Counted from the first letter of the stretch, positions 3,822 to 50,179 are shown. The stretch: DNA of 64,000 bases from a virus (IMGVR_UViG_3300028840_006907:96001-160000); one strand, 5' to 3'. Made by a program: numbers and translations. Notes: generated by a model from the sequence alone, not told the origin.

Positions 3822-3865
3822 ATAAAATAAAAAAGCTCCTGTCTGGTTCTCACCCGACAGGAGCT
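3822..3865 (-). terminator. rho-independent terminator (minus strand)
   Basis: 10-bp stem AGCTCCTGTC/GACAGGAGCT followed on minus strand by TTTTTTATTTT. Confidence 0.6.
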
Positions 3866-4023
3866 TGTATTTGCTTTATTGTTAGACAATATTATACCCT
3901 ATCAGGTGATATGTACCTCCCGATCTCGTTCGCGCCATTCTATAGCGATTGATATAATATTGTTTGTTGTTTTCATAATAATTTAAATATACCCCAAAAG
4001 GAAAGATATGTCAACTTTAAATT

Positions 4024-21564: not shown

Positions 21565-21593
21565 TTGACTTTTTATTCGAAATTGAGTATACT
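21565..21593 (+). promoter_or_regulatory. sigma70-like promoter TTGACT-N17-TATACT
   Basis: Near-consensus -35/-10 with 17-nt spacer. Confidence 0.5.
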
Positions 21594-21632
21594 ATACAAA
21601 TAGCAAATGAAATTTAAATTAAAGAAGGAAAA

Positions 21633-21722
21633 ATGACTTCAATAAATCTAAGCGCAATTATAAAAACAGCGGGAGCCACCGGGACAACAGTCGTAGTGGG
21701 TACGGCAGGAGTATTGCCTTAG
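21633..21722 (+). CDS. small Gly/Thr/Ala-rich peptide (29 aa)
   Basis: AAGGA RBS then MTSINLSAIIKTAGATGTTVVVGTAGVLP, followed by terminator. Confidence 0.4.
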   Translation: MTSINLSAIIKTAGATGTTVVVGTAGVLP

Positions 21723-21757
21723 AGGAAGTCTATATTATATATAAAGTCAAAGAAAAA

Positions 21758-21792
21758 GGACTTCCTCGATAAAAAGAGGGAGTCCTTTTTTT
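21758..21792 (+). terminator. rho-independent terminator
   Basis: Stem GGACTTCCTC/GAGGGAGTCC then TTTTTTT. Confidence 0.6.
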
Positions 21793-23245: not shown

Positions 23246-23253
23246 TAAATCAA

Positions 23254-23328
23254 GCCGGAGTAGCTCAGAGGCAGAGCAACGCTCTCGTAAAGCGTAGGTC
23301 AAGGGTTCAAGTCCCTTTTCCGGCTCCA
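23254..23328 (+). tRNA. tRNA-Thr (anticodon CGT)
   Basis: Hand fold: acceptor GCCGGAG/TTCCGGC, loop CTCGTAA, CCA. Confidence 0.85.
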
Positions 23329-28072: not shown

Positions 28073-28170
28073 TTGCTCATACTAAATTATGATGTGATTA
28101 TAAAGTGAAAATATAAAAAGAAACAGTCTAATACCTGAAGAATACAGAAAAAATAAAAATAAAAAACTGG

Positions 28171-28199
28171 TTGACACGGTTATGTTTTTTTAGTATTAT
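28171..28199 (+). promoter_or_regulatory. sigma70-like promoter TTGACA-N17-TATTAT
   Basis: Consensus -35 with 17-nt spacer. Confidence 0.5.
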
Positions 28200-28408
28200 T
28201 AAGGGTAGTTATTGAAGATTAAATTTTTAAAAAGTAGGAAAATGATGAATTTATTTAAGGCCCAGAACACAGTCAAAAGCATAAGACTACTATCAAGTAG
28301 TTTTAAATGCTCATTGTGTTTATCCCATATGCTCTATTCAATTAGAGGAAAACAGGTATGGGTGGGGTCTATGTGAATGTGATTTAATACATAATACGGA
28401 TAAAAAAA

Positions 28409-28442
28409 GCCCCCGCCCGATAAAAAGGACGGGGGCTTTTTT
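28409..28442 (+). terminator. rho-independent terminator
   Basis: GC stem GCCCCCG/CGGGGGC then TTTTTT. Confidence 0.65.
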
Positions 28443-28462
28443 CGTTTATAGGGTTAAAAGTA

Positions 28463-28711
28463 ATGAAAACAGTAAAAGACAGAGCATATTCATTTAATCA
28501 TACGAAAGATCGGCTTCTTGAAAGATGCCAGGTATCTTTATCGTTCGATGAATACAATGAGCTTTGTCAGAGATATATTGATAATAAAGTAACAATTGAT
28601 AATGTGGAAGGAGAGCAGATAGTATTCCTGACTGGATTTAAAGGAAACATGATTAAGTTTGTCTGGTCAAATAAACGTAAGTTGATTACAACTGCTCTTA
28701 AAACAATTTAA
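28463..28711 (+). CDS. hypothetical protein
   Basis: 82 aa ORF. Confidence 0.45.
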   Translation: MKTVKDRAYSFNHTKDRLLERCQVSLSFDEYNELCQRYIDNKVTIDNVEGEQIVFLTGFKGNMIKFVWSNKRKLITTALKTI

Positions 28712-28767
28712 CAAAGGAGACAGCCATTATGGTTGATGACTTTAGTGACTTTAGAAGTTTTAATTAT

Positions 28768-28843
28768 GGCTGTCTGACCGATGTGGTAAAGGTGCTGGAC
28801 TGAAAATCCAGAAATTCCGGTTCAATTCCGGAGGCAGCCACCA
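28768..28843 (+). tRNA. tRNA-Phe (anticodon GAA)
   Basis: Hand fold: acceptor GGCTGTC/GGCAGCC, loop CTGAAAA, CCA. Confidence 0.85.
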
Positions 28844-28870
28844 TTAGTAAATTAGTGTTTTTTAATAAAA

Positions 28871-28946
28871 GGGCGTATCGGCAAGCGGTTAAGCCACTAC
28901 TCTGATAAGGTAGCATGCGAAAGTTCAAATCTTTCTACGCCCACCA
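28871..28946 (+). tRNA. tRNA-Ile (anticodon GAT)
   Basis: Hand fold: acceptor GGGCGTA/TACGCCC, loop CTGATAA, CCA. Confidence 0.85.
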
Positions 28947-28965
28947 TAAATCTTAGGAGGACAAG

Positions 28966-29187
28966 GTGTTCTGGGTTTTACAAAACAATCTTTTTAATGA
29001 AGTAGGGTTTCAGTCTTTGGTAGGAACTCTGGAAAGGATGAATATAAAACATATCATTGTGAAAGTGGTTCCTTTTGTAGGAGATATAATTCCTGACATA
29101 AACCCGAAGAACCCTGTCATAGCAGTGGGAGCCTATTCCATGTGGAAGGTTGCCAAAAGAAAAGATGGCACCCAGGTGTCTTTGTGA
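28966..29187 (+). CDS. ATP-grasp protein, N-terminal fragment (frame differs from downstream part)
   Basis: 73 aa ORF overlapping 29142-29732 in another frame. Confidence 0.4.
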   Translation: MFWVLQNNLFNEVGFQSLVGTLERMNIKHIIVKVVPFVGDIIPDINPKNPVIAVGAYSMWKVAKRKDGTQVSL

Positions 29188-29732
29188 ATGAGAATTTTAC
29201 GTATCCGAAATTGATAAAACATTATGGAGACAATCTCTTAAATAAAGAATGCAATATAACTACACTTGAGAATGTTCTCCCGAAATATAACGAATTTTTT
29301 ATAAAACCTTGTAAGGATAGTAAAGTTTTCTCAGGACAAAGGATGACCTGGGTAGAATTTAAAGAGTGGAGAGAAAGAATCTTAGAACTCGGATGGGAGG
29401 GTTCAGTAAAGGGAAGTACCTGTGTAGTACAGGCACCTGTAAAAGAAATCTACCGGGAGTACCGGTTCTTTATAGTGAATGGTAAAGTTGTCACAGGTTC
29501 GCAATACAGAGTAGGAATGCGGGTATTTTCAACGGAATGTCATGAAAAGGATGTAATTGAATATGCTCAACGAATGGTTGATCTCTGGAGTCCGGATGTA
29601 GGTTTTGTCATTGACATAGCACTAACTCCTGAAGGATTCAAAGTTATCGAGATAAACTGTTTAAATGCTTCAGGCTTTTATGCCTGTGATATGAGTAAAG
29701 TAGTTTTTGCATTGGAGAAAATTTATAATTAA
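29142..29732 (+). CDS. ATP-grasp domain protein (C-terminal part)
   Basis: 196 aa; EYRFFIVNGKVV...VIDIALT...KVIEINCLNASGFY. Confidence 0.55.
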   Translation: MEGCQKKRWHPGVFVNENFTYPKLIKHYGDNLLNKECNITTLENVLPKYNEFFIKPCKDSKVFSGQRMTWVEFKEWRERILELGWEGSVKGSTCVVQAPVKEIYREYRFFIVNGKVVTGSQYRVGMRVFSTECHEKDVIEYAQRMVDLWSPDVGFVIDIALTPEGFKVIEINCLNASGFYACDMSKVVFALEKIYN

Positions 29733-29733
29733 C

Positions 29734-29819
29734 GCAGACGTGCTGGAATGGTAGACAGGCTTGGCTAAGGACCAAGTGTTCGTATGGGCGTGAGAGTTCG
29801 AGTCTCTCCGTCTGCACCA
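29734..29819 (+). tRNA. tRNA-Leu (anticodon read as AAG), type II
   Basis: Hand fold: acceptor GCAGACG/CGTCTGC, loop CTAAGGA, long variable arm, CCA. Confidence 0.75.
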
Positions 29820-29833
29820 TATAGGAAGTAAAG

Positions 29834-29998
29834 ATGGGCGAATGTAATTGCTGTTATATGACAATGGGAGAACATGCTTTGACTTGCCCTGCGTATAAAA
29901 GGGATAAAAGTCAGCCCTGTGATTGTTGCTATATGACAACAGGAGAACATGCTCTTACTTGCCCACAGTATGAAATTGAAGATAATGAGGAGGATTAA
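29834..29998 (+). CDS. small Cys-rich protein with internal tandem repeat (54 aa)
   Basis: Hand translation MGECNCCYMTMGEHALTCPAYKRDKSQPCDCCYMTTGEHALTCPQYEIEDNEED; RBS AGGAAG. Confidence 0.45.
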   Translation: MGECNCCYMTMGEHALTCPAYKRDKSQPCDCCYMTTGEHALTCPQYEIEDNEED

Positions 29999-30077
29999 GA
30001 TGGGACTGAACTCATCGTTGTTTAAACGTAAGTGGTTTGTAGATTAAGACCTGAGCCTGAGTGCTACAGGTCTGTAC

Positions 30078-30150
30078 GGGCTTGTGGCCAAGTTGGTAAG
30101 GCTCTTGACTTTTAATCAAGAAATCGTCAGTTCGATCCTGACCAGGCCCA
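30078..30150 (+). tRNA. tRNA-Lys (anticodon TTT)
   Basis: Hand fold: acceptor GGGCTTG/CAGGCCC, loop CTTTTAA. Confidence 0.85.
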
Positions 30151-30159
30151 TATGTAAAC

Positions 30160-30236
30160 GCTCCCGTAACTCAGTTGGTCAGAGTAGCTGATTCTTAATC
30201 AGCGAGTCGAGTGTTCAAATCACTCCGGGAGTACCA
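30160..30236 (+). tRNA. tRNA-Lys (anticodon CTT)
   Basis: Hand fold: acceptor GCTCCCG/CGGGAGT, loop TTCTTAA, CCA. Confidence 0.8.
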
Positions 30237-30255
30237 TAAGTAAAGTAAATAATTC

Positions 30256-30344
30256 GGAAGGGAGCCAGATATTGGTTAGCTGGGGCTGTCTGCTAAACAG
30301 TTGTTCTATAAGGACTTAGGGTTCAATTCCCTATCCTTCCGCCA
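30256..30344 (+). tRNA. tRNA-Ser (anticodon GCT), type II
   Basis: Hand fold: acceptor GGAAGGG/TCCTTCC, loop CTGCTAA, long variable arm, CCA. Confidence 0.8.
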
Positions 30345-30360
30345 TAAAAAGAAGATTAGC

Positions 30361-30603
30361 ATGAAAGATGAAGATGAACTTAAATGGTGTGATGACGATT
30401 GCAAAAATTGTGATGACGATTCAATAATTAAAGAAATACATGCTATTCGGAAGGAACATGCTAAAAGGTTTAATTATGATATAAAAGCTATGGGAGACGA
30501 TCACAAATTAAAACATCCAATCATTGTAGAGATGATGACTGCAAGTAGAAAAGGAGATCATGAAACTGTTAGAAAATTAAGACAAAAGTTGAATTCTATG
30601 TGA
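30361..30603 (+). CDS. small Cys-rich protein
   Basis: ORF trimmed to first ATG after tRNA-Ser; WCDDDCKNCDDD. Confidence 0.45.
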   Translation: MKDEDELKWCDDDCKNCDDDSIIKEIHAIRKEHAKRFNYDIKAMGDDHKLKHPIIVEMMTASRKGDHETVRKLRQKLNSM

Positions 30604-30767
30604 ATGAAAAGATTTTAAAAATGAATATGAAAAAGAAAGAACAGAAAAAGGCAATAAAATGGGGCAGAAGAAAGATATACATAGGAAGAAAAAGATTAAT
30701 GCCCGTAAACGAAAACCGTGTAATCGGGATTGCGAAAACTATAAAAAATTCAAGTGTTAATATATAG

Positions 30768-30845
30768 GGCCGAGTGGTGAAGTTGTTTTAACACGGTAGT
30801 CTGCAAAACTATTATGCGTCGGTTAGAATCCGACCTCGGCCTCCA
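30768..30845 (+). tRNA. tRNA-Cys (anticodon GCA)
   Basis: Hand fold: acceptor GGCCGAG/CTCGGCC, loop CTGCAAA, CCA. Confidence 0.75.
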
Positions 30846-31068
30846 GTTCTTTGAAATAAATAAGTATATCGAGTCCACGCGCAGATGTTAAGTCTGTGAG
30901 GAAGCTCAGGACATCACCGCTGACGGAAGGAGACGTAAGTCGTAGGTACTTCCTAGGATGCAACACAAACAGACCTATGCCGGTGAGCGGGGCTATGATG
31001 GTCGGGTTAGTGGCAAAGATAAATGTGGACATAAAACAGAATCCTGGCTACGGATATACTTATTATAC

Positions 31069-31175
31069 GGAGAGGTAGGTTTAATTGGTAAAATCAGTGC
31101 TTTGCACAGCACCTAAGCTAGCAAGGTGCCATTCCAGGGATGGATTTCGGGGTTCAAGTCCCCGTCTCTCTGCCA
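31069..31175 (+). other. atypical 107-nt tRNA-like element (canonical acceptor, D-arm and T-arm; aberrant anticodon region)
   Basis: GGAGAGG/TCTCTCT acceptor pairing, D-arm GGTTTAATTGGTAAAATC, T-arm CGGGGTTCAAGTCCCCG, CCA; middle holds GTGCTTTGCAC hairpin and GCTAGC palindrome. Confidence 0.35.
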
Positions 31176-31186
31176 ATAAATTATAC

Positions 31187-31275
31187 GGAGGTAGACCGGC
31201 TGGACGAGGAGCCTGTCTTGAAAACAGGTAGGGCTGTAAAAGGTCTTCGGGGTTCAAGTCCTCGTGCCTCCGCCA
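31187..31275 (+). tRNA. tRNA-Ser (anticodon TGA), type II
   Basis: Hand fold: acceptor GGAGGTA/TGCCTCC, loop CTTGAAA, CCA. Confidence 0.8.
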
Positions 31276-31351
31276 TAAAAACAATAGTTATCAAAAGGTA
31301 ACTATAAGTTCTTTGACATTTCGGTTATTATGAAGTAAGCACATATTTATA

Positions 31352-31430
31352 TGGTGAGCGTAGCTTAACTTGGTTAGAGCACTGGATTGTGGTTCCAGGA
31401 GTTGGGGATTCGAGTTCCCTCGCTCACCCC
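31352..31430 (+). tRNA. tRNA-His (anticodon GTG)
   Basis: Extra 5' G(-1) opposite C73, loop TTGTGGT, CCA. Confidence 0.85.
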
Positions 31431-31459
31431 ATAAATTTTCATTTTATATAGAATGAAAC

Positions 31460-31549
31460 GAGTAGGAGGTCAGATAGTGGTTGGCTGCACCGGACTGTAA
31501 ATCCGGATCTCGTAAAGGGACGCTGGGGGTTCGACGCCCTCCCTACTCA
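31460..31549 (+). tRNA. tRNA-Tyr (anticodon GTA), type II
   Basis: Hand fold: acceptor GAGTAGG/CCTACTC, loop CTGTAAA, long variable arm. Confidence 0.8.
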
Positions 31550-31563
31550 TTTGTCAATTTTAT

Positions 31564-31649
31564 GGAGAGCAACCGAATGGTTAGGAGGCGGTTTCGAAAA
31601 CCGTTAAGGCTGAAAGGCTAACTAAGTTCGATTCTTAGGCTCTCCGCCA
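31564..31649 (+). tRNA. tRNA-Ser (anticodon CGA), type II
   Basis: Hand fold: acceptor GGAGAGC/GCTCTCC, loop TTCGAAA, CCA. Confidence 0.8.
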
Positions 31650-32066
31650 TTAACAAACAGATTTTAAAAAAGATGATGCTACTCTTTTAATTGCTTCTTT
31701 ATCGGCGTTTTCCATTTGATTAACAATTTTTTTGGCCCAGGTATATCCAGAATCACCTCCCCAAACAAGCCATGCTACATAACCTTTATCTTTCCATGGT
31801 TCATTTTTATATTCTGGGTTTATCTTTTTATTCTTTTGATGACGGTCGAAGAAAGCTTTCATTCTTTTGACTGTTTTGGGAGATAAAATATCTCTGTTTT
31901 TAAGATTAACAGCTCTTTGAACACCAGACCCAACACCTTCTGCTTTTGCCTGTTCAACTGTTAGTCCTCCTTTACCACCGGCCATTCTTCTATATCTTAA
32001 ACCTTTTTCAGCTTCTTTGGCTACTGATTCAGGAGGTTTAAAATTGATATGTTCATATTTTTTCAT
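31650..32066 (-). CDS. hypothetical protein
   Basis: 138 aa ORF, Gly-rich GGKGGLT and WLVWGGDSGY motifs. Confidence 0.5.
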   Translation of the reverse strand: MKKYEHINFKPPESVAKEAEKGLRYRRMAGGKGGLTVEQAKAEGVGSGVQRAVNLKNRDILSPKTVKRMKAFFDRHQKNKKINPEYKNEPWKDKGYVAWLVWGGDSGYTWAKKIVNQMENADKEAIKRVASSFLKSVC

Positions 32067-32116
32067 AATAAATAACTCCTTATTATGTTTTTATATATTT
32101 ATAGATAATTATTTTT

Positions 32117-32202
32117 GGAGGATATCCGAATTGGTTTAGGGGCTCGGTTGGAAACCGAGTGGGCTCAATGCCTTGCAGGTTCGATCCCTGTGTCCTCCGC
32201 CA
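32117..32202 (+). tRNA. tRNA-Ser (anticodon GGA), type II
   Basis: Hand fold: acceptor GGAGGAT/GTCCTCC, loop TTGGAAA, CCA. Confidence 0.8.
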
Positions 32203-32282
32203 CTTTTTCAAAAAAACTTCCGAACAATTCTTGTTCTCATGTCGTATCATATATAGGGGCTGTTTTTTATGAAAGGTAAGAT

Positions 32283-32624
32283 ATGGGTCGATACCAAATA
32301 GCACTGGAGAAAAAACCTAAAAAGATCGAGTTAAATAAATCCGATACTAAGAAAATTGATATTTCTAATAAATCTGAATTAAAACAATCATATTTCACCG
32401 ATCTTAAAGTGATGATGGAGTTTATGGCTGAAAAGGGTGGTAATTGGATACCAGAAAAAGATCTTTATTTTGAAGAGATCCCTTTAGTAGCCTATAAATC
32501 TGATAACGAAATGGTTGTCATTACTGCAAAGGATATGCATCTTACGGAAAAGAATATAACGGAAATGGACAGAAAATCTTTTAGATCTGAGAAACCTCTT
32601 CGATTTAAAAAGTTTTTTGAGTAG
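32283..32624 (+). CDS. MxRY-family small protein (paralog 1)
   Basis: 113 aa; N-terminus MGRYQIALEKKPKK. Confidence 0.5.
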   Translation: MGRYQIALEKKPKKIELNKSDTKKIDISNKSELKQSYFTDLKVMMEFMAEKGGNWIPEKDLYFEEIPLVAYKSDNEMVVITAKDMHLTEKNITEMDRKSFRSEKPLRFKKFFE

Positions 32625-32636
32625 GATAGGAATCAT

Positions 32637-32945
32637 ATGAGCCGGTATCGTATCATAGTTGATGAAAAAAAAGAAGAAGAACAGATCCATTTAAGACAGG
32701 AACGAAATAAAGAAGAGAATAATCGCATATTTGACGATGTAAAAAAGATGAGTGACTTTATGTCCCTATTAAATTCAGTATGGGTTCCTACTCATTTTGG
32801 GTTCATTATGAAATACAGGGAATTTGAAGGAGTGATAACAGTTATTATAAGTACTGCAGAGTATAATAAAACAAAAGATCTTTTACCCAAAGAATTGTTA
32901 ATACAATTCGAAGCTCATGGAGTGGTAGTTTTTAAAAAATCATGA
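32637..32945 (+). CDS. MxRY-family small protein (paralog 2)
   Basis: 102 aa; N-terminus MSRYRIIVDEKK. Confidence 0.5.
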   Translation: MSRYRIIVDEKKEEEQIHLRQERNKEENNRIFDDVKKMSDFMSLLNSVWVPTHFGFIMKYREFEGVITVIISTAEYNKTKDLLPKELLIQFEAHGVVVFKKS

Positions 32946-33262
32946 GTAGATACAAAATAGCATTAAATAAGGGAAAGTCTCCCGAAGATAAAGAATTAAA
33001 TGAGTATTTTGCAAATAAACCAGAACATAGTATTTCGTTTATAAGTGCTGTAGATGTTTATAATTTTTTATCTGAAGAAAGTGATAAATGGTTCCCAGAT
33101 TCTGGGACACCTTTGATAATAAGTTATGTAAATAAAGATAAAAATAGATCGTTTATGATAACTCAATATAACTGGAATAAGACAAAGCATTTTATACCAG
33201 TATCTATTTTGAGATCCATTGAAGAAAGAGCACCGTTTTTCGTATCAAAAAAGAGAGTATGA
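32942..33262 (+). CDS. MxRY-family small protein (paralog 3)
   Basis: 106 aa; N-terminus MSRYKIALNKGK. Confidence 0.5.
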   Translation: MSRYKIALNKGKSPEDKELNEYFANKPEHSISFISAVDVYNFLSEESDKWFPDSGTPLIISYVNKDKNRSFMITQYNWNKTKHFIPVSILRSIEERAPFFVSKKRV

Positions 33263-33263
33263 A

Positions 33264-33788
33264 ATGGGACAAGAAATTTGGTTGTACCCAGATCCGGTTC
33301 AGATACCTAAGGTAAAAGAGTACGTTAAACTTTTAGGTAAGAGGGTGGATGATTATAATTACATCGATGGACCGGATTTTGATGGTTGGGAAATGAATTG
33401 TTGGATTGAATGGACAACAGTGGATCCCGAATGGGAGAGTGATACAGAAGAATACAGTTTTGAAGGTATGGATGAATTCTTAGAAATAGGTTATCAATCT
33501 CATCACTATAAGGGTGATTTCGCAGAATGTATTGCCTGGGAAATTAAAAAACGATTTACAATACTTAAAGTTGGTTGGGATTCAATTGGATGGTCCACTC
33601 AGTTCTGGGATAATGAGCCTTTTGATTTTCAGATAAAGATGAGACAAAAAACATTGAAAAAAGATTTGAGTGATGAAATGCGAAGGGATTTCGAAGAAGA
33701 AATAGTTATGATAAAAAAGATAAAAGAAGGCTGTATGGGTTTTGCCAAAGAGCTGTTCTTAAAAGCTGATCAATTACTAAAAAATTAA
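33264..33788 (+). CDS. hypothetical Trp-rich acidic protein
   Basis: ORF-track 33219-33788 trimmed to ATG just after upstream stop (MGQEIWLYPDP...). Confidence 0.5.
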   Translation: MGQEIWLYPDPVQIPKVKEYVKLLGKRVDDYNYIDGPDFDGWEMNCWIEWTTVDPEWESDTEEYSFEGMDEFLEIGYQSHHYKGDFAECIAWEIKKRFTILKVGWDSIGWSTQFWDNEPFDFQIKMRQKTLKKDLSDEMRRDFEEEIVMIKKIKEGCMGFAKELFLKADQLLKN

Positions 33789-33790
33789 AT

Positions 33791-33946
33791 ATGGGTAGAT
33801 ACGAGATAGCACTAGATAAGCAACCGAAGAGAGTTTTAAATTTGAATCATTTTAAACAACAAGCCCAAACTGTTATATCAAGCTGGCCTAAATGGAAAAG
33901 ACAGGGAGCGGGTAAAGAGGAAACAGCTCCAATTAAAAGAAAATGA
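33791..33946 (+). CDS. MxRY-family small protein (paralog 4, 51 aa)
   Basis: Hand translation MGRYEIALDKQPKRVLNL...; below ORF-track cutoff. Confidence 0.4.
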   Translation: MGRYEIALDKQPKRVLNLNHFKQQAQTVISSWPKWKRQGAGKEETAPIKRK

Positions 33947-33964
33947 GTTATTAAGGGATACAGT

Positions 33965-34318
33965 ATGAGTCGTTTTGATATTGCCTTGGGTAAAGAACTC
34001 CCAAAGGTAAAAAAGACCAAAAATTCTAAGAAAAGTAAGAAGGCTAAAAAGAAGGTTATTTCTCCGTATGATTTAAAGAGTAATGTAACTGTATTTACGA
34101 ATGCTCGTAAGATGTATGAGTTTATGGGTTTGGCAATAGGTTCTTGGCATCCTGTTATTTCTGACCCACCGGTGATTGGTTATCATAACCCGGCTTGGGA
34201 AGGGATCTCGGTTACAATTAGTGTTGAAGATTACAACAAAACAAAAAGTCCAATTAAGGGTATTAAGATGCCTGTTATGAGTCCTGTTGAAATTGTAGGA
34301 AATTTGTTTAGAAAATAA
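33965..34318 (+). CDS. MxRY-family small protein (paralog 5)
   Basis: 117 aa; N-terminus MSRFDIALGKELPK. Confidence 0.5.
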   Translation: MSRFDIALGKELPKVKKTKNSKKSKKAKKKVISPYDLKSNVTVFTNARKMYEFMGLAIGSWHPVISDPPVIGYHNPAWEGISVTISVEDYNKTKSPIKGIKMPVMSPVEIVGNLFRK

Positions 34319-34320
34319 AT

Positions 34321-34397
34321 GGCAGTGTAGCATAGTAGATTAATGCATTCGGCTCATATCCGGGAGATCGGAGGTTTAATTCCTCTCACTGCCACCA
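34321..34397 (+). tRNA. tRNA-Met/Ile2 (anticodon CAT)
   Basis: Hand fold: acceptor GGCAGTG/CACTGCC, loop CTCATAT, CCA. Confidence 0.75.
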
Positions 34398-34420
34398 ATT
34401 TACATAAAGAAAGAAGTAGT

Positions 34421-34621
34421 ATGACATATGAATTAGAATTTGATCCTGAATATGAAGAACAAATTCGTGAGGCAGAATTACTTGCTAGTGATATATGCCC
34501 TACGTGCCTTGGTTCAGGTAAGGTCTATGGTAAATGGAATACAAAAAAACGGTGTACTGACTGTGATGGTACAGGAAAACACCCGGATAATCATAAAGAA
34601 GAAAAGGAGCTTCCTTATTAA
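34421..34621 (+). CDS. small DnaJ-type zinc-finger protein (CXXCXGXG x2)
   Basis: Trimmed to ATG after tRNA; CPTCLGSGK and CTDCDGTGK. Confidence 0.5.
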   Translation: MTYELEFDPEYEEQIREAELLASDICPTCLGSGKVYGKWNTKKRCTDCDGTGKHPDNHKEEKELPY

Positions 34622-34900
34622 TGGCAACAAACAACCAGACTACAACGCGCTGGGATCCTAATGGTGAAATCGTGAAAAACTATGGTTGTTTGAGCGATTG
34701 TGACGGTGCGATAATCCGATGACGGTGGACTCCGTAGCTGAAGCTCCATATCAGCTTCTATGGGTAACAATGGAGATAACCCATAGCGCAGGGCTGTCAT
34801 AGCTTTAGAGTGTCATATAAGGAAGTATCCTTATATAAATTTATTAACCCTTTACAAAGGAGGTAGATATGCTATAACACAATAAACAAGGAGTTATAGT

Positions 34901-35137
34901 ATGTCTAGAAGTTACAGAAAGCCGTATGTAAAAGACGGCTATGGATCAAAGGGCAAAAGATTCATGAAGAATTATGCCAATCGGGTGGTAAGGCATTCTA
35001 AGGATGTTCCGAATGGCAGAGCCTATAAGAAATTATTTTGTTCTTATGATATTTGTGATTATTATTTCTACGTGGAAGTAAAGAGAAAGGATGATCCTTA
35101 TTTTGAACCAGAGTTCTGGAAATACGCCAGAAAATGA
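34901..35137 (+). CDS. hypothetical basic protein
   Basis: 78 aa ORF. Confidence 0.4.
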   Translation: MSRSYRKPYVKDGYGSKGKRFMKNYANRVVRHSKDVPNGRAYKKLFCSYDICDYYFYVEVKRKDDPYFEPEFWKYARK

Positions 35138-35309
35138 AATAAAAGTACAAGCTACAAGGATAATGCAGGAATTACTTAAACGCATCTTAGACAATTCTGC
35201 AGAGGTAGGACGACCAGACCCAGACATAAGATATGGCTCTTCTCTTCATGTTTTAAGTAAATCCATTGGGCAAGTCATGGCGGAGGAATTGGAGAAATTG
35301 AAGAAATGA
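35091..35309 (+). CDS. hypothetical protein
   Basis: 72 aa ORF overlapping neighbour in another frame. Confidence 0.35.
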   Translation: MILILNQSSGNTPENEIKVQATRIMQELLKRILDNSAEVGRPDPDIRYGSSLHVLSKSIGQVMAEELEKLKK

Positions 35310-35503
35310 AAGTTTCATTCCATTTTTTATGGTATGACTTCTGGGTCGGGTTCTTTTGGGATCAAAAGAAACGAATTTTGTACTTTTGCCCATTACCATG
35401 TGCCGTTATTAAAATGAAATTCAGGAAAAGGAAAATTGATAAAGGTTTTCGACATCCAAAATTAAGCTTCTTTTATAAAGTTTTTAAAGGGAAAAAAGAA
35501 TAA
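35306..35503 (+). CDS. hypothetical protein
   Basis: 65 aa ORF. Confidence 0.35.
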   Translation: MKVSFHFLWYDFWVGFFWDQKKRILYFCPLPCAVIKMKFRKRKIDKGFRHPKLSFFYKVFKGKKE

Positions 35504-35557
35504 CTATTTGTGCTGTAATAAAGATGGGATTTTAATTGTAGAAAAAGTTATAGGATT

Positions 35558-36142
35558 ATGATGAGTGAAGCTCGTAAAAGTTATGCTAAACGTTCATTTA
35601 TTATAGGTAAATTTAAATATATCTTTAAAATATATGTTACTGAAGAACTAATATTTTCATCAGAGGATCTATTCCCTTTAAGGGATAAGACTATGATAAC
35701 ATTTTTTAGAACGAATTCTTATATTGAAACAGCAAAACAAATGAATATCTCAATTCCTGAATTAAAGAAAAAGATCTTAAATACTATAGAATTACTTGGA
35801 GAAGTTAGATCATTCTATTTAACGAAAAAACTTGTTAGGCATAATAAAAAAAGTAAAGATTGTAATTTAGGAACTTATAGAACAAAAAGAATAAGAGTAA
35901 GTGAATATAAAAAACCATTAGTTGAAGAATTCAGATGTAATATTAAGAGGTATCAAAATATAATGGGTAAATTTTTGAGCCCTTTAAAAAAGGATGTTAT
36001 GGAATTAATATTGAAAAACGGCTCTTATTTAAAAACAGCTAAAAGATTGAATATAACACCCAAAAAAGTCAGAAATGAGCTTGTGGGAATAGTTAAATTA
36101 CTTAAAAAGGTGAAAAAGACTGATTGGATTATTCCATCATAG
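35558..36142 (+). CDS. DNA-binding protein with two HTH repeats (sigma-70 region-4-like)
   Basis: 194 aa; repeated YIETAKQMNIS / YLKTAKRLNIT helix-turn-helix-like segments. Confidence 0.5.
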   Translation: MMSEARKSYAKRSFIIGKFKYIFKIYVTEELIFSSEDLFPLRDKTMITFFRTNSYIETAKQMNISIPELKKKILNTIELLGEVRSFYLTKKLVRHNKKSKDCNLGTYRTKRIRVSEYKKPLVEEFRCNIKRYQNIMGKFLSPLKKDVMELILKNGSYLKTAKRLNITPKKVRNELVGIVKLLKKVKKTDWIIPS

Positions 36143-36328
36143 AAAAGAGATATTATGACCATATGTCCTTATTGTAATGAACAAAGAAGTTTAGAGCATG
36201 ATAATTCATGTGTTCTCTGGAAACGAAGAATATACATAGGTTTTACGAATGCCCTGATGTGCCTTTTCGGGATACTTTTAATATTTGGTCTAATGTTTCT
36301 TGTAATAAAGTATGGTTGAAAGATTTAT

Positions 36329-36410
36329 GGCCGAGTGGCAGAATTGGCAGACGCGCTAGATTTAGGATCTAGTTTCGAAAGAATTGGAGGTTCGATCCCT
36401 CTCTCGGCTA
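36329..36410 (+). tRNA. tRNA-Leu (anticodon TAG), type II
   Basis: Hand fold: acceptor GGCCGAG/CTCGGCT, loop TTTAGGA, long variable arm. Confidence 0.8.
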
Positions 36411-36438
36411 TTTAAAGAATTCTTTAAAGGTAAATAAG

Positions 36439-36741
36439 ATGAGAACTTATGGACAAATAGTAGATGATGTAAAAAAGGTTTCAGGGCCTCAATTAGTGGC
36501 TTTGTTCTGCGTCATAGCAGGTGAGTGTATAAAAAAGAAATGTTTCAATCCTGGTGGGATGAAAACAACTATTGCCAGAATAGAAAACAGAATTGCTGAA
36601 GAAATGGGTAAAGAAGAACCTAAACCTAAGATAGCGGAATTAACGTGTGGAAGTTGTGGAGCCACTTACACTTTAGATACGAATTATATACATCGTACAT
36701 GTGGCTTACGGGGCTGTAAAGGTAAGTTACATAAATTATAA
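36439..36741 (+). CDS. zinc-ribbon protein
   Basis: 100 aa; CGSCG...CGLRGC. Confidence 0.45.
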   Translation: MRTYGQIVDDVKKVSGPQLVALFCVIAGECIKKKCFNPGGMKTTIARIENRIAEEMGKEEPKPKIAELTCGSCGATYTLDTNYIHRTCGLRGCKGKLHKL

Positions 36742-36749
36742 ATAAAAAT

Positions 36750-36833
36750 GATCGGGTGGAGGAATTGGGATACTCAGCAAATTTAAGCTTTGCTGTCCTT
36801 TGTGACATGCGGGTTCGATTCCCGCCCCGATTA
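36750..36833 (+). tRNA. tRNA-Leu (anticodon TAA), type II
   Basis: Hand fold: acceptor GATCGGG/CCCGATT, loop TTTAAGC, long variable arm. Confidence 0.8.
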
Positions 36834-36846
36834 TTATATAATAATT

Positions 36847-37323
36847 ATGGTTTACAAAAATTGTAGAACATACGGCCCTTATGAAGGTAAAGATGGTAGA
36901 CTAAGAGTATGTGTAGTTTACCCTGATTTGAGTAAAAGAACAGTATCATATCCTAAATATCTTATGGAGAAACATTTGAATAGATATTTAGAAAAGAATG
37001 AAACAATAGATCATAAAGATGAAAATCCTTTAAATAATAAATTAAGTAATTTGAATATTCTTATTAAAGGTGATCATTGCCGTAAACATGCTAAGAGATT
37101 GTTACCTAGAAGTTTTAGCTGCCCTCAATGTAAGAAACCGTTTGTTTTATCAGGACGAAGATTACATGATGCTATACAAAACAGAAAAAGAGGTAAAGTG
37201 GGTCCTTTTTGTAATAAAAGATGTGGGGGAATATACGGAACAGATGTTCAAAATAAAAGAATAGAAGTTTTAGATGTGATTCAAATACCTGTTGAATATG
37301 AGCCTAAAATAAAAGAGATATAG
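36847..37323 (+). CDS. HNH homing endonuclease
   Basis: Trimmed to ATG after tRNA-Leu; IDHKDENPLNNKLSNL HNH_3-like motif. Confidence 0.7.
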   Translation: MVYKNCRTYGPYEGKDGRLRVCVVYPDLSKRTVSYPKYLMEKHLNRYLEKNETIDHKDENPLNNKLSNLNILIKGDHCRKHAKRLLPRSFSCPQCKKPFVLSGRRLHDAIQNRKRGKVGPFCNKRCGGIYGTDVQNKRIEVLDVIQIPVEYEPKIKEI

Positions 37324-37325
37324 AC

Positions 37326-37637
37326 ATGAATTTATATTGTCCAAAATGCAAGGAGCGTCGTGTTGCCCAAGTAGGTGCAGGGGCTTCTATAATGGTAAAT
37401 GGTAAACCTGCTGATTATAGCATTTTAAAAGGAATTATGAGATGCGGTGAGTGTGGTAGCTCATTGGTAGCAGAAGAAGATTTAATAGAATACAATCCTC
37501 ATAAATGTTTACCTGTTGGGTTTTCTTTTTGTGAAGGGTTTTGTCCACAGAAGACAGAAGATGGTAAATGCGGGTTTGATAAGTATGAGTTGTTAAGTTG
37601 TCCTTATGATTTAGGTAATCGTAATTGTAATTGTTAA
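37326..37637 (+). CDS. Cys-rich zinc-binding protein
   Basis: 103 aa with many Cys (CPKCKE, CGECG, CNC). Confidence 0.45.
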   Translation: MNLYCPKCKERRVAQVGAGASIMVNGKPADYSILKGIMRCGECGSSLVAEEDLIEYNPHKCLPVGFSFCEGFCPQKTEDGKCGFDKYELLSCPYDLGNRNCNC

Positions 37638-37644
37638 TAAATAA

Positions 37645-37727
37645 GGCCGGATGTTGGAATTGGTATACAAGGACGGCTCAAACCCGTTCGCCTTTACGGT
37701 ATGGGAGTTCGATTCTCCCTCCGGCTA
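37645..37727 (+). tRNA. tRNA-Leu (anticodon CAA), type II
   Basis: Hand fold: acceptor GGCCGGA/TCCGGCT, loop CTCAAAC, long variable arm. Confidence 0.8.
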
Positions 37728-37741
37728 AATAAAGGATTCTT

Positions 37742-38035
37742 ATGAATAAAAGGTGCTTTTATACGTCAATAGTGCAAAGCCGGTATCATATCAGAGGCAC
37801 TAAGCCACAGGAACCTTATATTCATTATATAGATCCTTATCTTCGGAAGGTATTGAGATATCCTCGGTGGTTAAGATCTGATCTTAAATTTGAAGTACAA
37901 GAGCCCGTTTTATCGAAAAAAGAATATTTAAAAATAAAAATGAAAATTATAGCTAAAATTGCAAAAAAAGCTACAGAGCAAATTCAAGCTGAAGAAGATA
38001 GACGCATTATCAAATTTTTAAAGAAAGTTGCATAA
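37742..38035 (+). CDS. hypothetical protein
   Basis: 97 aa ORF. Confidence 0.4.
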   Translation: MNKRCFYTSIVQSRYHIRGTKPQEPYIHYIDPYLRKVLRYPRWLRSDLKFEVQEPVLSKKEYLKIKMKIIAKIAKKATEQIQAEEDRRIIKFLKKVA

Positions 38036-38376
38036 TGGAAAATAAAGAAATTACTCTTAGGGAAATTGGTGAATTAGCCAATAAACTAGAAGATGAAATC
38101 GGAATAAATCTGGATGCTGTGATGAATAAGTTGACTCAGGAGGTTGGAGAGTTCAATGATGCCATCCAAAAGCACAGAGGTATTCACAGCCGGTCATGGG
38201 TACCTTTGGTTAAAGTGATAGATGAGCTAGGTGATGTCCTTGTGAATTTAATATCGATAGCTTATAGGCTTGAAATTAATCCAGATGCCTTTCCTGGTAT
38301 AGCTGAGAAGACTCTTAATAAGTTCAAAGAGCGTAAGAATGATTACATAGAAAATAAGGGGATTGATAATGTATAG
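38035..38376 (+). CDS. MazG-like nucleoside triphosphate pyrophosphohydrolase
   Basis: 113 aa; EVGEF...DELGDVLVNLISIA all-alpha NTP-PPase-like motifs. Confidence 0.55.
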   Translation: MENKEITLREIGELANKLEDEIGINLDAVMNKLTQEVGEFNDAIQKHRGIHSRSWVPLVKVIDELGDVLVNLISIAYRLEINPDAFPGIAEKTLNKFKERKNDYIENKGIDNV

Positions 38377-38557
38377 TTCGATTCAAACTGATTTAGTGAC
38401 CAGACGTGTCCTTATAAATGATTATGAGGTAAAGGATTATGAGGGAATTGTAAGAGCCGTCTTTCATGATGGTAAATATTTAAAAGCCATAGTGGAAAAA
38501 GAAGGTGGTGAATTAGAACAGTGTAATGTTGTAGAGATGAAAATTATTAGAAAATAA
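38363..38557 (+). CDS. hypothetical protein
   Basis: 64 aa ORF. Confidence 0.4.
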   Translation: MIMYSSIQTDLVTRRVLINDYEVKDYEGIVRAVFHDGKYLKAIVEKEGGELEQCNVVEMKIIRK

Positions 38558-38563
38558 ATATAC

Positions 38564-38642
38564 GCCCTGTTAGCTCAGTTGGATCTAGAGCAAGGCCCTT
38601 CTAAGGCTTAGGTCGGGGGTTCGAGTCCCTCACAGGGTGCCA
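38564..38642 (+). tRNA. tRNA-Arg (anticodon TCT)
   Basis: Hand fold: acceptor GCCCTGT/ACAGGGT, loop CTTCTAA, CCA. Confidence 0.85.
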
Positions 38643-38867
38643 TTTTAATAATGCTCTAATAGCGCATTTTTAATAAATGCGAATGGAGGATTATTATGGA
38701 CGAGAACAAGAAGCATTTAATTGAAATGGCTACACTTAAGTACGGAGAAATTTATCCCACTAGTGAATGTAATTCCCTCTTAGAATGATTTACTGTAGTG
38801 GGAGGTAAGTTGTACCTCTGGTTTAATTTAAAGGATGGGAATACAAGAGTCCTGTCACGGGAGATAA

Positions 38868-39443
38868 ATGATGGGGATAAGGATTGATATTGAACATGTC
38901 CGGAAGATCCAGGAAGAACGGAAAAGAATTAATTCTATACCATTAGAACAAATTGAATGGTACGAAGATGGGATAAAATTGGAAATTCATCCCGATTTAA
39001 TAAGAGAATTTTTATTTACAGGATTAGATAATACTGACTTCATAATAAGTGAAATGTACAAAGATAAAGGTCCTTACAGAGTTTTTAAAGATTCTGAATG
39101 TGGTAGATTATTTGATGAGAAGCAAATTGTCGGGCAGAAAATGTGCTATTTAGGTGATGTTGGTTGTGGCTCAACCGGTATAGGACCTAGACCTATATTT
39201 GTTGATGCTGAAGAGTTTGTGAAAAGAGTAAGTACTTTACGATCAGAAGGTATGACAAAAGAACAGTGTAAAGAGTTTGTCTTTAAGAAACTGGAAAAGA
39301 AAGGGTGTGGTTATAATTTTAGTGGATCCTGGATTGAATGGGATAGTCTTATAGAAGCAGTTTTCGGTAATTTAGAAACTGATAACACGAATCCAGTTGT
39401 CCGGAACGTAATTGAAATAATGAAACGTGATAAGTCCCTGTAG
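38868..39443 (+). CDS. hypothetical protein
   Basis: 191 aa ORF; stop overlaps start of tRNA-Arg. Confidence 0.5.
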   Translation: MMGIRIDIEHVRKIQEERKRINSIPLEQIEWYEDGIKLEIHPDLIREFLFTGLDNTDFIISEMYKDKGPYRVFKDSECGRLFDEKQIVGQKMCYLGDVGCGSTGIGPRPIFVDAEEFVKRVSTLRSEGMTKEQCKEFVFKKLEKKGCGYNFSGSWIEWDSLIEAVFGNLETDNTNPVVRNVIEIMKRDKSL

Positions 39444-39509
39444 TTCAACAGGATAGAACATAGGTTTCCTAAACCTAGTATTGGGGTTCGAGTCCCTACA
39501 GGGATACCA
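39434..39509 (+). tRNA. tRNA-Arg (anticodon CCT)
   Basis: Hand fold: acceptor GTCCCTG/CAGGGAT, loop TTCCTAA, CCA. Confidence 0.8.
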
Positions 39510-39640: not shown

Positions 39641-40192
39641 ATGAACAACTATAAGACATTAGTATTAGCAGGTGGAGTACCTATTGACGTGGAAAGCTGG
39701 CAAAAATCATTAACAAAATGTATATCGGGAAAGGCCATAGCAATCAAGAATAGGAAAGAAATTGCCTTTGAGACTAATGGAGTAGTTACATACATACCTT
39801 CGATCATTGTAATCTTAAATACCTATTTTATGGGTAGATTAAGGTTTGTAAATACGGTTCCTCTTAATAGGCGTAATTTGTGGCTTAGGGATAAAGGTCA
39901 TTGTATGTATTGTAATAGTAAAATAACGACAGAAGAAGTGACTTTTGATCATGTCATTCCTCAAAGTAAAGGCGGTAAAACAACTTGGACGAACGTTGTC
40001 TGCTCGTGTTCTATTTGTAATAATAAAAAAGACAATAGAACTCCAAAACAGGCTAGGATGACTTTGGTAAAAGCACCAACGGTTCCTAAACTTAGTAAAA
40101 AGGTTGTCCAAAGAATGATAAAAAAGTTGGGAACTATTTCTATTAATGAGGATTCTTGGAAAGGTTATTGGGACGTGACTTTATTGTCGTAA
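39641..40192 (+). CDS. HNH endonuclease
   Basis: 183 aa; CMYCNSKIT...FDHVIPQSKGG...CSCSICNNKK. Confidence 0.7.
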   Translation: MNNYKTLVLAGGVPIDVESWQKSLTKCISGKAIAIKNRKEIAFETNGVVTYIPSIIVILNTYFMGRLRFVNTVPLNRRNLWLRDKGHCMYCNSKITTEEVTFDHVIPQSKGGKTTWTNVVCSCSICNNKKDNRTPKQARMTLVKAPTVPKLSKKVVQRMIKKLGTISINEDSWKGYWDVTLLS

Positions 40193-40253
40193 GAAAAAGG
40201 GAGTATTTTTACTCCCTTTTTTTATATTTAAAATTATAAAAGGAGAAAAAATT

Positions 40254-49402: not shown

Positions 49403-49431
49403 TTGACTTTAAGATCATTTAGGGGTATATT
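49403..49431 (+). promoter_or_regulatory. sigma70-like promoter TTGACT-N17-TATATT
   Basis: Near-consensus -35/-10. Confidence 0.5.
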
Positions 49432-49487
49432 TAAATTAAATTACCTTTTGTTAGAAAACGATAATTTCTAAAGAGTGTGTCAAAGAA

Positions 49488-49565
49488 ATGCTGAGAATGA
49501 CTTTTAATAGTAACCCAAATCCACAACCAAAGAATTTGCTATTCGTTGGGGTTGTTATGATATAG
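49488..49565 (+). CDS. micro-ORF (25 aa) with NPNPQP motif
   Basis: MLRMTFNSNPNPQPKNLLFVGVVMI between promoter and terminator. Confidence 0.35.
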   Translation: MLRMTFNSNPNPQPKNLLFVGVVMI

Positions 49566-49592
49566 TCATAATCTCTACCTTGGATCAGGAAA

Positions 49593-49628
49593 AGCCCCGG
49601 CAAATGAGAGTTCTCCGGGGCTTTTCTT
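49593..49628 (+). terminator. rho-independent terminator / conserved hairpin (copy 1)
   Basis: GCCCCGG-caaatgagagttct-CCGGGGC then TTTT. Confidence 0.6.
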
Positions 49629-49646: not shown

Positions 49647-49979
49647 ATGAAATTCGGTTCTATCACAGGTTTTTATAAGGGAAGGATAGAACTTATGAAT
49701 AAAGTATCTTGGGATGAGTATAATAGTATGGTAAATTCAGCAATTGATAGTGGGTATCCTTATGCTAGTGGTATTTTAATAGCTGAATTAGAATCCATAG
49801 CTAAGAATCTAACTCATCAAAATAAAAAGATAGAGGAAACATTAGTAAAAGAAGATAAGGATAAATTGGAAATTAGATTGGAATCAGTAAAGTCATGGAA
49901 TAAAGATACTATTGAGGGTATCGAAAGAGCTATTAAAAAAGCTGATGAAGCAGTAAAAAAATTAAGTGTTGACATTTAA
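49647..49979 (+). CDS. hypothetical protein
   Basis: 110 aa ORF. Confidence 0.45.
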   Translation: MKFGSITGFYKGRIELMNKVSWDEYNSMVNSAIDSGYPYASGILIAELESIAKNLTHQNKKIEETLVKEDKDKLEIRLESVKSWNKDTIEGIERAIKKADEAVKKLSVDI

Positions 49980-49997
49980 TACAATTTGTGGTATCTT
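49969..49997 (+). promoter_or_regulatory. possible promoter TTGACA-N17-TATCTT
   Basis: Consensus -35, weak -10. Confidence 0.35.
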
Positions 49998-50035
49998 TAA
50001 ATTTACATAGTTTTTATTATAAGGAAAGTTTTAAA

Positions 50036-50110
50036 ATGTTGTTTACAAAAATACTCAATAATAACCCGCAACCTAATCAACCAACGAATATTTATTTGTC
50101 GGGGGCCTGA
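50036..50110 (+). CDS. micro-ORF (24 aa) with NNNPQPNQP motif
   Basis: MLFTKILNNNPQPNQPTNIYLSGA; RBS AAGGAAAG. Confidence 0.35.
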   Translation: MLFTKILNNNPQPNQPTNIYLSGA

Positions 50111-50141
50111 GTATTGTCCAAAAGTTAAACTGAAATCACAA

Positions 50142-50178
50142 CCCCCGGCGAATGAGAGTTCACCGGGGGTTTTTATTT
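50142..50178 (+). terminator. rho-independent terminator / conserved hairpin (copy 2)
   Basis: CCCCCGG-cgaatgagagttca-CCGGGGG then TTTTTATTTTT. Confidence 0.6.
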
Positions 50179-50179
50179 T

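Follow-up and report, generated by a model that had tools for sequence, protein, structure and literature searches.

A probable leader-peptide attenuator ahead of a tRNA operon in a huge phage, with sister modules at the other tRNA clusters

We analyzed a 64,000-nucleotide (nt) stretch of viral DNA (IMGVR_UViG_3300028840_006907:96001-160000; hereafter, the window), which is a section of a huge phage genome with a GC content of ~33%. An initial annotation had singled out a short promoter-to-terminator unit at 28171-28442 as a candidate gene for a small RNA (sRNA) or a small protein. We find that this unit (hereafter, unit C) is probably a ribosome-dependent, or leader-peptide, transcription attenuator that gates a phage transfer RNA (tRNA) operon, a reading to which we assign a probability of about 0.75. 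It is understood as a cis-acting leader because the gap to the next gene has no promoter, an antiterminator lies at the end of its open reading frame (ORF), its codons match the downstream tRNAs, and four sister modules are present in the same window. Unit C also has the structural features of leader-peptide attenuators: a short ORF with a ribosome-binding site, a regulatory codon run, a terminator ahead of the genes, and a mutually exclusive antiterminator (Table 1).

Relatives of unit C were recovered with neighboring genes as anchors. These comprise six close versions (the window plus L003, L006, L008, L009, and L023) and a seventh, more distant version on a 589-kb contig (L026). The L003 version has identical copies in L004, L019, and L021; the copy in L005 runs off the contig end. 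In every version, the unit lies directly upstream of an ORF of 82 amino acids (where present) and of a tRNA cluster that starts with tRNA-Phe. The 82-amino acid protein is 70 to 87% identical in the versions compared (70% for L003).

The promoter reported by the initial annotation is confirmed. It matches the sigma-70 consensus at 11 of 12 positions and is the top plus-strand match in a local scan and joint top in the window. Both hexamers and the 17-nt spacing are unchanged in the six close versions, whose flanks diverge, and also in L026. The promoter is credible because of this conservation and not because of its match score: sites matching at least 11 of 12 positions number seven in the window versus 3.5 ± 2.2 in shuffles, and a single match, taken alone, is within chance. 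Downstream, the relatives carry a purine-rich GGA/GAA element ahead of the leader ATG, where the window has its Shine-Dalgarno-like AGGA.

The uncalled 44-codon ORF also holds up, at 28242..28376. An in-frame extra ATG at 28242 yields the 44 amino acids, while the second ATG (28245) is the start conserved in relatives. The annotation pipelines of the source contigs called no gene at this ORF, nor is one called in the relatives' annotation. The frame from ATG 28245 is open for 42 to 46 codons in 7/7 versions, with two to seven stops in each of the other two frames; the chance of such an open frame, given composition, is 0.015 to 0.06 per sequence. Gap lengths within the ORF are divisible by three in the six close versions, whereas those outside are not (the L026 row aligns poorly and is uninformative on gap lengths). 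Among the six close versions, the residues MNL and NT are invariant, and SxCLS (with the Cys of SLC) is invariant among all seven.

The sequence evolution of this leader is nevertheless unlike that of a protein. Twelve consecutive codons (AGT AGT TTT AAA TGC TCA TTG TGT TTA TCC CAT ATG) are identical in three lineages, synonymous sites included. The amino acid changes that do occur are radical (C to L/R or deletion, L to S, and H to Y). A HMMER search with a 54-amino acid ORF query against 1.84 billion protein representatives returned 0 matches at E ≤ 0.001. Together with the absence of an Rfam family match, these observations argue that the leader does not evolve as a protein does. Two other candidates for this region were dropped: a CxxC zinc-binding peptide, as the first Cys is not conserved, and a minus-strand gene, as the conserved promoter lies on the plus strand.

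We confirm the GC-rich terminator and extend it to 28403-28442. Its stem (AAAAAAGCCCCCG-C-CC / GG-A-CGGGGGCUUUUUU) has a folding free energy of -26.8 kcal/mol (z = -4.25) and is among the strongest in the window, although a simple terminator scan overlooked it because of one internal mismatch. Seven pairs have compensatory changes across relatives, and the observed covariation is matched by 0/500 shuffles. The Rfam scan proposed in the initial annotation gave no family match for the unit, either at the gathering threshold (window) or at permissive thresholds (28000-28600). Sub-threshold scores for Phe_leader, His_leader, Leu_leader, and Thr_leader (22 to 26 bits versus cut-offs of 49 to 55) come from the terminator alone, as the alignments cover only that hairpin.

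A G-rich box near the stop codon is complementary to the 5' arm of this terminator. The box:arm duplex is worth -19.9 kcal/mol, a value reached by 8/2000 dinucleotide shuffles. When the RNA is folded with its end at the terminator 5' arm, the minimum-energy structure switches to the box:arm helix (-50.5 versus -46.4 kcal/mol). Across the six close versions, 93% of the alignment cells in this antiterminator pair, versus at most 60% when the partner is slid, and there are two compensatory pairs; pair types include G-C exchanged with A-U and U-G/U-A/C-G. In L026, the helix is 10 base pairs long without a mismatch. Substitutions in the box alter the encoded amino acid (V to A, G to R, S to A); wherever the arm allows a check, pairing is preserved or strengthened. 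Thus, sequence comparison indicates that the box segment of the ORF is under RNA-level selection. Unit C as a whole folds better than its shuffles (z = -3.5 without the terminator and -5.6 with it), and the leader is predicted to fold into a three-way junction in which the antiterminator forms the 3' strand. The long hairpin P2 inside the ORF is modeled as a possible RNA polymerase pause or synchronizing hairpin.

We find that all four tRNA clusters of the window are preceded by the same module: a promoter, a short ORF, a box at the stop codon, a terminator, and then tRNAs. This architecture is common to modules A, B, D1, and D2, with the terminator before the regulated genes in each, although their sequences are unrelated and their peptides dissimilar. 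In all five modules, the best upstream complement of the terminator 5' arm overlaps the end of the ORF, on or beside the stop codon. The box:arm duplexes range from -15.4 to -19.9 kcal/mol, and only 3 to 11 of 2000 dinucleotide shuffles reach them. Folds of the shortened RNA contain the antiterminator in B, C, D1, and D2. Folding predicts a region 1:2 helix, in which an upstream segment masks the box, for A, C, D1, and D2, and places region 1 of B at codons 1 to 3. No aptamer-like sequence or fold is common to the five modules, only the ORF, box, and terminator. As a control, the transfer-messenger RNA (tmRNA) gene (15870-16282, minus strand; 159.9 bits) has its own promoter of this type (TTGATA-17-TATACT, 16334-16306) and no leader module.

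The peptides encoded by the sister leaders mirror the tRNAs that follow them. Module A precedes tRNAs Glu, Arg acg, Met, Trp, Asp, and Arg ccg (3822-2426), and its run reads EWRERDRE, ahead of Glu, Trp, Arg, and Asp tRNAs. Module B is followed by Thr tgt, Met, an Ala tgc-like gene, Gly tcc, Gly gcc, Val tac, and Thr cgt (21795-23328), and leader B is rich in T, A, G, and V, before Thr, Ala, Gly, and Val tRNAs. Module D1 is followed by an ORF of 110 amino acids (49647-49979) and then by module D2, behind which lie Gln ctg, Pro cgg, Pro ggg, Asn gtt (split by a group I intron), Pro tgg, Gln ttg, and a suppressor cta (50180-53189). Leaders D1 and D2 are both rich in N, P, and Q, and D2 is directly ahead of the Gln, Pro, and Asn tRNAs. 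The diverged C-type leader of L026 (MVRTTTLRSTRLTLTKAISLSKSSLCLSIMLHSYFIKRHTEVGFVN, then stop) stands before Phe, Leu, Lys, Ser, Cys, and His tRNAs. A further leader on L024 (9075-9230; MSSTRIISIITSTTIISDSFMDDIVTSGSLFD, then stop) is Ile-rich, with seven Ile codons, and is unrelated in sequence to leader C; its box, GCGGAAGUC, is followed by a terminator and by tRNAs Met(cat), Met(cat), and Ile(gat). One of these two CAT tRNAs is probably a lysidine-type tRNA-Ile2.

To quantify this correspondence, leader and cluster codon sets were compared under standard wobble rules, with random codon strings from the phage's own genes as the null. Each leader scores highest with its own cluster (log-odds 12.3 to 18.4, versus at most 4.1 for other clusters), and each match is significant against random codon strings (P ≤ 6.5e-5 in all five modules). 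Each leader also ranks first or second for its own codon set among the 674 short ORFs (20 to 60 codons) of the window. Most tRNAs of each cluster have a cognate codon in their leader (5/5 for A, 6/6 for B, 14/15 for C, and 5/6 for D2). The codon runs are mixed and not of a single amino acid. That of leader C reads ...KSiRLLSSSFKCSLCLSHMLySIR..., and its sole noncognate codon, TAT, is conserved; a tRNA-Tyr(gta) is present in the same cluster of relatives. Within the C family, 21 to 27 consecutive codons remain inside the cluster's codon set despite amino acid changes (C to L/R, L to S, H to Y/I, and K to R or the reverse).

The terminator loops are common between some modules: CGATAAAAAG occurs in B (21768-21775) and C (28419-28426), and AATGAGAGTTC in D1 (49601-49611) and D2 (50151-50161). 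These common loops suggest that the modules arose by duplication, followed by re-tuning of ORF and stem. We also observe that the leader ORFs of B (21720-21722) and D1 (49563-49565) terminate in TAG, and that a CUA suppressor tRNA (53116-53189, plus strand) closes cluster D. In B, a ribosome reading through TAG would travel past the box and terminator, which might serve as an override late in infection. Some phage genes may also have TAG recoded.

There is no promoter between the terminator of unit C and the 82-amino acid ORF. From that terminator to ~40222, the plus strand has no further strong terminator and no intergenic promoter-like site; unit C is therefore predicted to gate an operon of ~12 kb. 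Cluster C begins with Phe gaa, Ile gat, Leu aag, Lys ttt, Lys ctt, Ser gct, and Cys gca, continues with an odd tRNA-like gene, Ser tga, His gtg, Ser gga, and Met cat, and ends with Leu tag, Leu taa, Leu caa, Arg tct, and Arg cct. Of the short transcript posited in the initial annotation, a promoter-to-terminator RNA with a translated ORF is probably real, but it is most likely the leader of a tRNA operon and not a free-standing unit.

Table 1. Positions of unit C, its operon, the sister modules, and the intron-split tRNA gene, counted from the first letter of the window.
Feature	Position	Strand	Description
Promoter, leader C	28171..28199	+	TTGACA-N17-TATTAT, sigma-70-type; predicted start ~28206
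Shine-Dalgarno-like element	28236..28239	+	AGGA, 5 nt upstream of conserved ATG 28245
Leader ORF C	28245..28376	+	43 codons and TGA; MNLFKAQNTVKSIRLLSSSFKCSLCLSHMLYSIRGKQVWVGSM, then stop
Long hairpin P2 inside ORF C	28265..28321	+	Pairing potential visible in all six aligned versions
Regulatory codon run C	28275..28346	+	Codons 11-34; 23/24 read by downstream cluster C tRNAs
Region 1	28324..28331	+	CCCAUAUG; pairs with (C)AUAUGGG 28355-28362; candidate anti-antiterminator
Region 2, G-rich box	28360..28369	+	GGGUGGGGUC; 5-16 nt upstream of stop codon; complementary to terminator 5' arm
Intrinsic terminator, regions 3 and 4	28403..28442	+	5' arm 28403-28418, loop 28419-28426, 3' arm and U-run 28427-28442
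82-amino acid ORF, predicted first regulated gene	28463..28711	+	Starts 20 nt past terminator C; no Pfam family
tRNA cluster C	28768..39509	+	16-17 tRNA genes with small ORFs between
Strong terminator	40178..40222	+	Probably ends cluster C operon
Module A	3826..4014	-	Promoter 4014-3986; ORF 3976-3902, MKTTNNIISIAIEWRERDREVHIT, then stop; run 3940-3917; box 3908-3897 over stop; terminator 3866-3826
Module B	21565..21792	+	Promoter 21565-21593; ORF 21633-21722, MTSINLSAIIKTAGATGTTVVVGTAGVLP, then stop; run 21666-21713; box GAGGAAGUC 21722-21730; terminator 21753-21792
Module D1	49403..49627	+	Promoter 49403-49431; ORF 49488-49565, MLRMTFNSNPNPQPKNLLFVGVVMI, then stop; box 49544-49554; terminator 49590-49627
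Module D2	49969..50179	+	Promoter 49969-49997; ORF 50036-50110, MLFTKILNNNPQPNQPTNIYLSGA, then stop; run 50057-50089; box 50097-50106; terminator 50140-50179
tRNA-Asn(GUU) with intron	51361-51632	+	197-nt group I intron (51395-51591; also given as 51385-51583) after anticodon position 35

We propose that unit C would work as follows. Host RNA polymerase would initiate at the sigma-70-type promoter, and a ribosome would translate the 43-codon leader. With smooth decoding, the ribosome would reach the stop codon and cover the box, the terminator would fold, and transcription would stop. If cognate aminoacyl-tRNAs were scarce, the ribosome would instead stall in the codon run, mask region 1, and leave the box free. 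The free box could then pair with the terminator 5' arm, and polymerase would read into the tRNA genes. Mutating the box (GGGUGGGG to CCCUCCCC) is predicted to give constitutive termination. Such a circuit would couple phage tRNA supply to demand by negative feedback, acting as an OR-gate over many codons. As the downstream tRNAs read the very codons that make up the run, feedback on tRNA supply is the most economical reading. Shortage might arise from host tRNA decay, from anticodon-nuclease defenses, or from the AT-rich codon demand of the phage. Translation of the leader ORF, the direction of regulation, and tRNA availability as the signal are all steps that we infer from this arrangement.

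Several observations weigh against this interpretation. The codon set of leader C is large (42% background) and the least specific of the five, and this leader drops to third in a wider list of short ORFs; for tRNA-Leu(aag) to read CTC, A34/I34 decoding has to be assumed. Stalls at the 5'-most codons of its long run would not obviously unmask the box. In the C family alone, covariation of the antiterminator is modest (41/500 shuffles reach it), and the region 1:2 pairing is conserved only in part (P3 and P1 pairings). Among the sister modules, leader A would be near-leaderless, its ATG lying 10 nt past the -10 hexamer, and D1 covers only 3/6 of the cluster D tRNAs and is directly followed by a protein ORF rather than by tRNAs. 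Finally, the tRNA-Ala-like gene behind module B is found only at relaxed ARAGORN settings, with 19.8 bits on the Rfam tRNA-Sec model.

The two options of the initial annotation have to be weighed against the same evidence. An independent, trans-acting sRNA of ~235 nt, with an incidental ORF, would agree with the clean promoter and terminator that bound the unit, with a body that folds better than its shuffles, and with the 37-nt stretch identical in L003 beside a 70% identical protein; in addition, the terminated attenuator RNA rnTrpL is reported to act in trans elsewhere (PMC6614838). Yet the unit matches no Rfam family, its ORF is open in 7/7 versions with in-frame gaps among the six close ones, and an sRNA leaves both the codon match and the box:arm pairing unexplained. 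It would also leave the next gene without a promoter and would not account for four non-homologous sister modules, with one or more at every tRNA cluster. We therefore regard an independent sRNA as quite improbable, although the ~235-nt terminated leader RNA could also act in trans. A gene for a 43-amino acid protein with a function of its own, followed by an ordinary terminator, is still harder to credit. The conserved ORF, its Shine-Dalgarno-like element, its in-frame indels, and some invariant residues (MNL, NT, and SxCLS) are what such a gene would have. However, the protein search was empty and no gene caller called the ORF, the radical substitutions stay inside the tRNA-cognate codon set, and the C-terminal changes preserve RNA pairing. 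Nor would a protein product account for 12 codons with frozen synonymous sites in three lineages or for sister leaders that lack peptide similarity. The codon match, the antiterminator, and the sister modules thus make it most likely that unit C is neither kind of gene.

Two further explanations were weighed. A leader that binds a ligand, a protein, or uncharged tRNA, and so selects between terminator and antiterminator, could take the form of the predicted three-way junction with the antiterminator as its 3' strand, and the competing hairpins would suit it. But there is no T-box match at the gathering threshold in the window or at E ≤ 10 in 28000-28600, and riboswitch models likewise give none. 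The riboswitch reading of the junction was dropped as the modules have no aptamer in common and P1, like P3, is poorly conserved by eye in the C-family alignment; open frames and codon runs would also be left unexplained. We consider an RNA switch of this kind unlikely. The terminator could, alternatively, end the upstream operon, with the promoter restarting transcription and partial read-through being constitutive. The terminator is bidirectional-looking, with an A-run before and a U-run after it, and the upstream genes are on the same strand, but the promoter precedes rather than follows the terminator. Such punctuation is very improbable, as it accounts neither for the conservation of the ORF nor for the codon/tRNA correspondence, nor for a complementary box at the stop codon in five modules.

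Reading the leaders as inventories of the tRNAs behind them also helped annotation, by exposing tRNA genes that default finders overlook. With default ARAGORN, the window has 34 tRNA genes, in addition to the tmRNA gene and a group I intron. Asn codons prevail in D1 and D2, yet default ARAGORN reports no tRNA-Asn; a search then found the intron-split tRNA-Asn(GUU) of cluster D. Spliced in silico at CUGU|...G|UAA, the gene yields a 75-nt tRNA-Asn(GUU) of canonical form, and the 5' splice site has a U.G pair, as expected of group I introns. Default ARAGORN misses this gene, and the -i option mis-calls it as Thr(tgt). Similarly, Ala codons in leader B pointed to the aberrant tRNA-Ala(UGC)-like gene at 22689-22765 (plus strand), which has an odd D-arm.

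Other unusual RNA elements lie in the same clusters. The odd tRNA-like gene of cluster C (31069-31175, plus strand) is 104 to 107 nt long, scores 30.1 bits on the Rfam tRNA model, and has an apparent 6-nt anticodon loop and a ~32-nt variable arm; ARAGORN assigns it to Cys(gca), with an intron of 11 nt. In cluster D, a 279-nt element (50999-51277, plus strand) is tRNA-like at both ends. With the -i option, ARAGORN reads it as Gln(ttg) bearing a 207-nt intron; the tmRNA model also matches it along its full length, though weakly (11.7 bits). The element may be another tRNA with an intron or a tmRNA-like RNA within the cluster.

The surroundings of unit C have further features. A motif, CAGTCTAATACCTGAA, at 28124-28139 (plus strand), ~30 nt upstream of the -35 hexamer, is kept in all six close versions, with AATACC invariant, and is a candidate binding site or UP-like element. 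Directly after the 82-amino acid gene is a second short ORF (28714-28803, plus strand), also present in L003, L006, L008, and L009. It has a strong Shine-Dalgarno sequence (AAGGAG), starts MxDDFSDF, contains two or three TTT codons, and extends into tRNA-Phe. The segment AGACAGCCAT (28718-27), after this Shine-Dalgarno sequence, is complementary to the 5' acceptor strand of tRNA-Phe (28766-75) and covaries with it in relatives (GTGGC with GCCAC/GCCGC). This segment may be a second, Phe-specific control on tRNA-Phe folding or processing. Pfam searches of the 82-, 90-, and 110-amino acid neighbors gave nothing significant. On contigs L011 to L018 (3001-3261 and the next gene), which also hold a Gp23-family (T4-type major capsid) gene, distant homologs of the 82-amino acid protein (43 to 50% identity) lie immediately upstream of the RNA ligase RtcB, without a leader. 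This adjacency suggests that the protein may take part in RNA or tRNA repair.

Identical DNA is present in contigs of 389 kb (JGI 3300017963) and 469 kb (ENA ERZ27256798). Searched with DNA and with protein, the INPHARED phage collection yielded no close relative; the only matches are three uncultured huge phages, with 25 to 34% identity to a 574-amino acid protein. Scans of IMG/VR with two flanking proteins and three DNA patterns returned nothing or a chance match, and a single pattern scan of metagenomes returned the L003 variant, two chance matches, and nothing else. A pattern scan of a genome contig collection gave six chance matches and no clue to the host. No tRNAs were found in LR756511.1 (70-170 kb), which was checked for syntenic tRNA clusters, and blastn with a tRNA segment gave no matches beyond unrelated phage tRNA-Lys genes.

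Ribosome-mediated attenuation in its classical form is known from trp, his, leu, thr, and pheA. The enterobacterial leaders (trpL, hisL, leuL, thrL, pheL, and ilv) have the same layout as the phage modules: a promoter-proximal ORF, a codon run, mutually exclusive hairpins, a stop codon beside region 2, and, immediately ahead of the regulated genes, an intrinsic terminator. In trp, the stop codon lies ~33 nt before region 3, and distances in unit C are similar. In contrast to enterobacterial leaders, which regulate biosynthetic enzymes, the phage modules would regulate tRNA genes. Their runs are mixed, with up to 24 codons for up to nine amino acids that match downstream anticodons, whereas the enterobacterial runs are repeats of one amino acid. 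The phage signal is likely tRNA supply rather than amino acid supply, with one module per tRNA cluster.

Other systems have some of these properties. Both pheM-pheST and T-boxes regulate genes of the translation apparatus via tRNA state, through termination and antitermination. However, pheM senses one tRNA and a synthetase is regulated, while the phage modules would sense many tRNAs and their products are tRNAs themselves; T-boxes bind uncharged tRNA without a ribosome, and the phage unit has no T-box match. The polycysteine leaderless short-ORF attenuators of mycobacteria (bioRxiv 10.1101/834739) and the proline-codon leaders of mgtA and mgtCBR (PMC3641672) are reported to be alike in that the codon content of a short ORF senses decoding stress and controls downstream transcription. 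The polycysteine leaders are also leaderless, as module A seems to be, but both groups sense a single amino acid and control protein-coding operons; single-amino acid leaders are also described in PMC3082878. In Anabaena, the trn operon is a mobile array of supernumerary tRNA genes induced under translational stress (PMC8421152). That array is bacterial, not from a phage, and no attenuator, leader, or terminator is mentioned for it.

A search of the full-text literature found no report of leader-peptide attenuation of tRNA genes. While leader-peptide attenuation itself is known, the tRNA-gene cargo, the composite run that mirrors downstream anticodons, and the modular use by a phage are new as far as that search reaches. 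The evidence also tilts, with less assurance than for unit C itself, toward a broader proposal: that huge phages run a modular sensor of decoding capacity, in which each leader is a checklist of its cluster's codons and a shortage switches on the tRNAs that remedy it. If true, these would be the first tRNA genes under ribosome-mediated attenuation and the first composite, multi-codon attenuator, and attenuation would be extended from one amino acid to a whole tRNA set. The modules might also provide portable sensors of tRNA availability for synthetic biology. Such control would bear on how phages regulate their own tRNA genes and on why large phages carry a large tRNA complement. It would tune phage tRNA output to real-time decoding demand, explain the grouping of tRNAs into clusters, and point to a direct counter to host defenses that cleave or deplete tRNAs.

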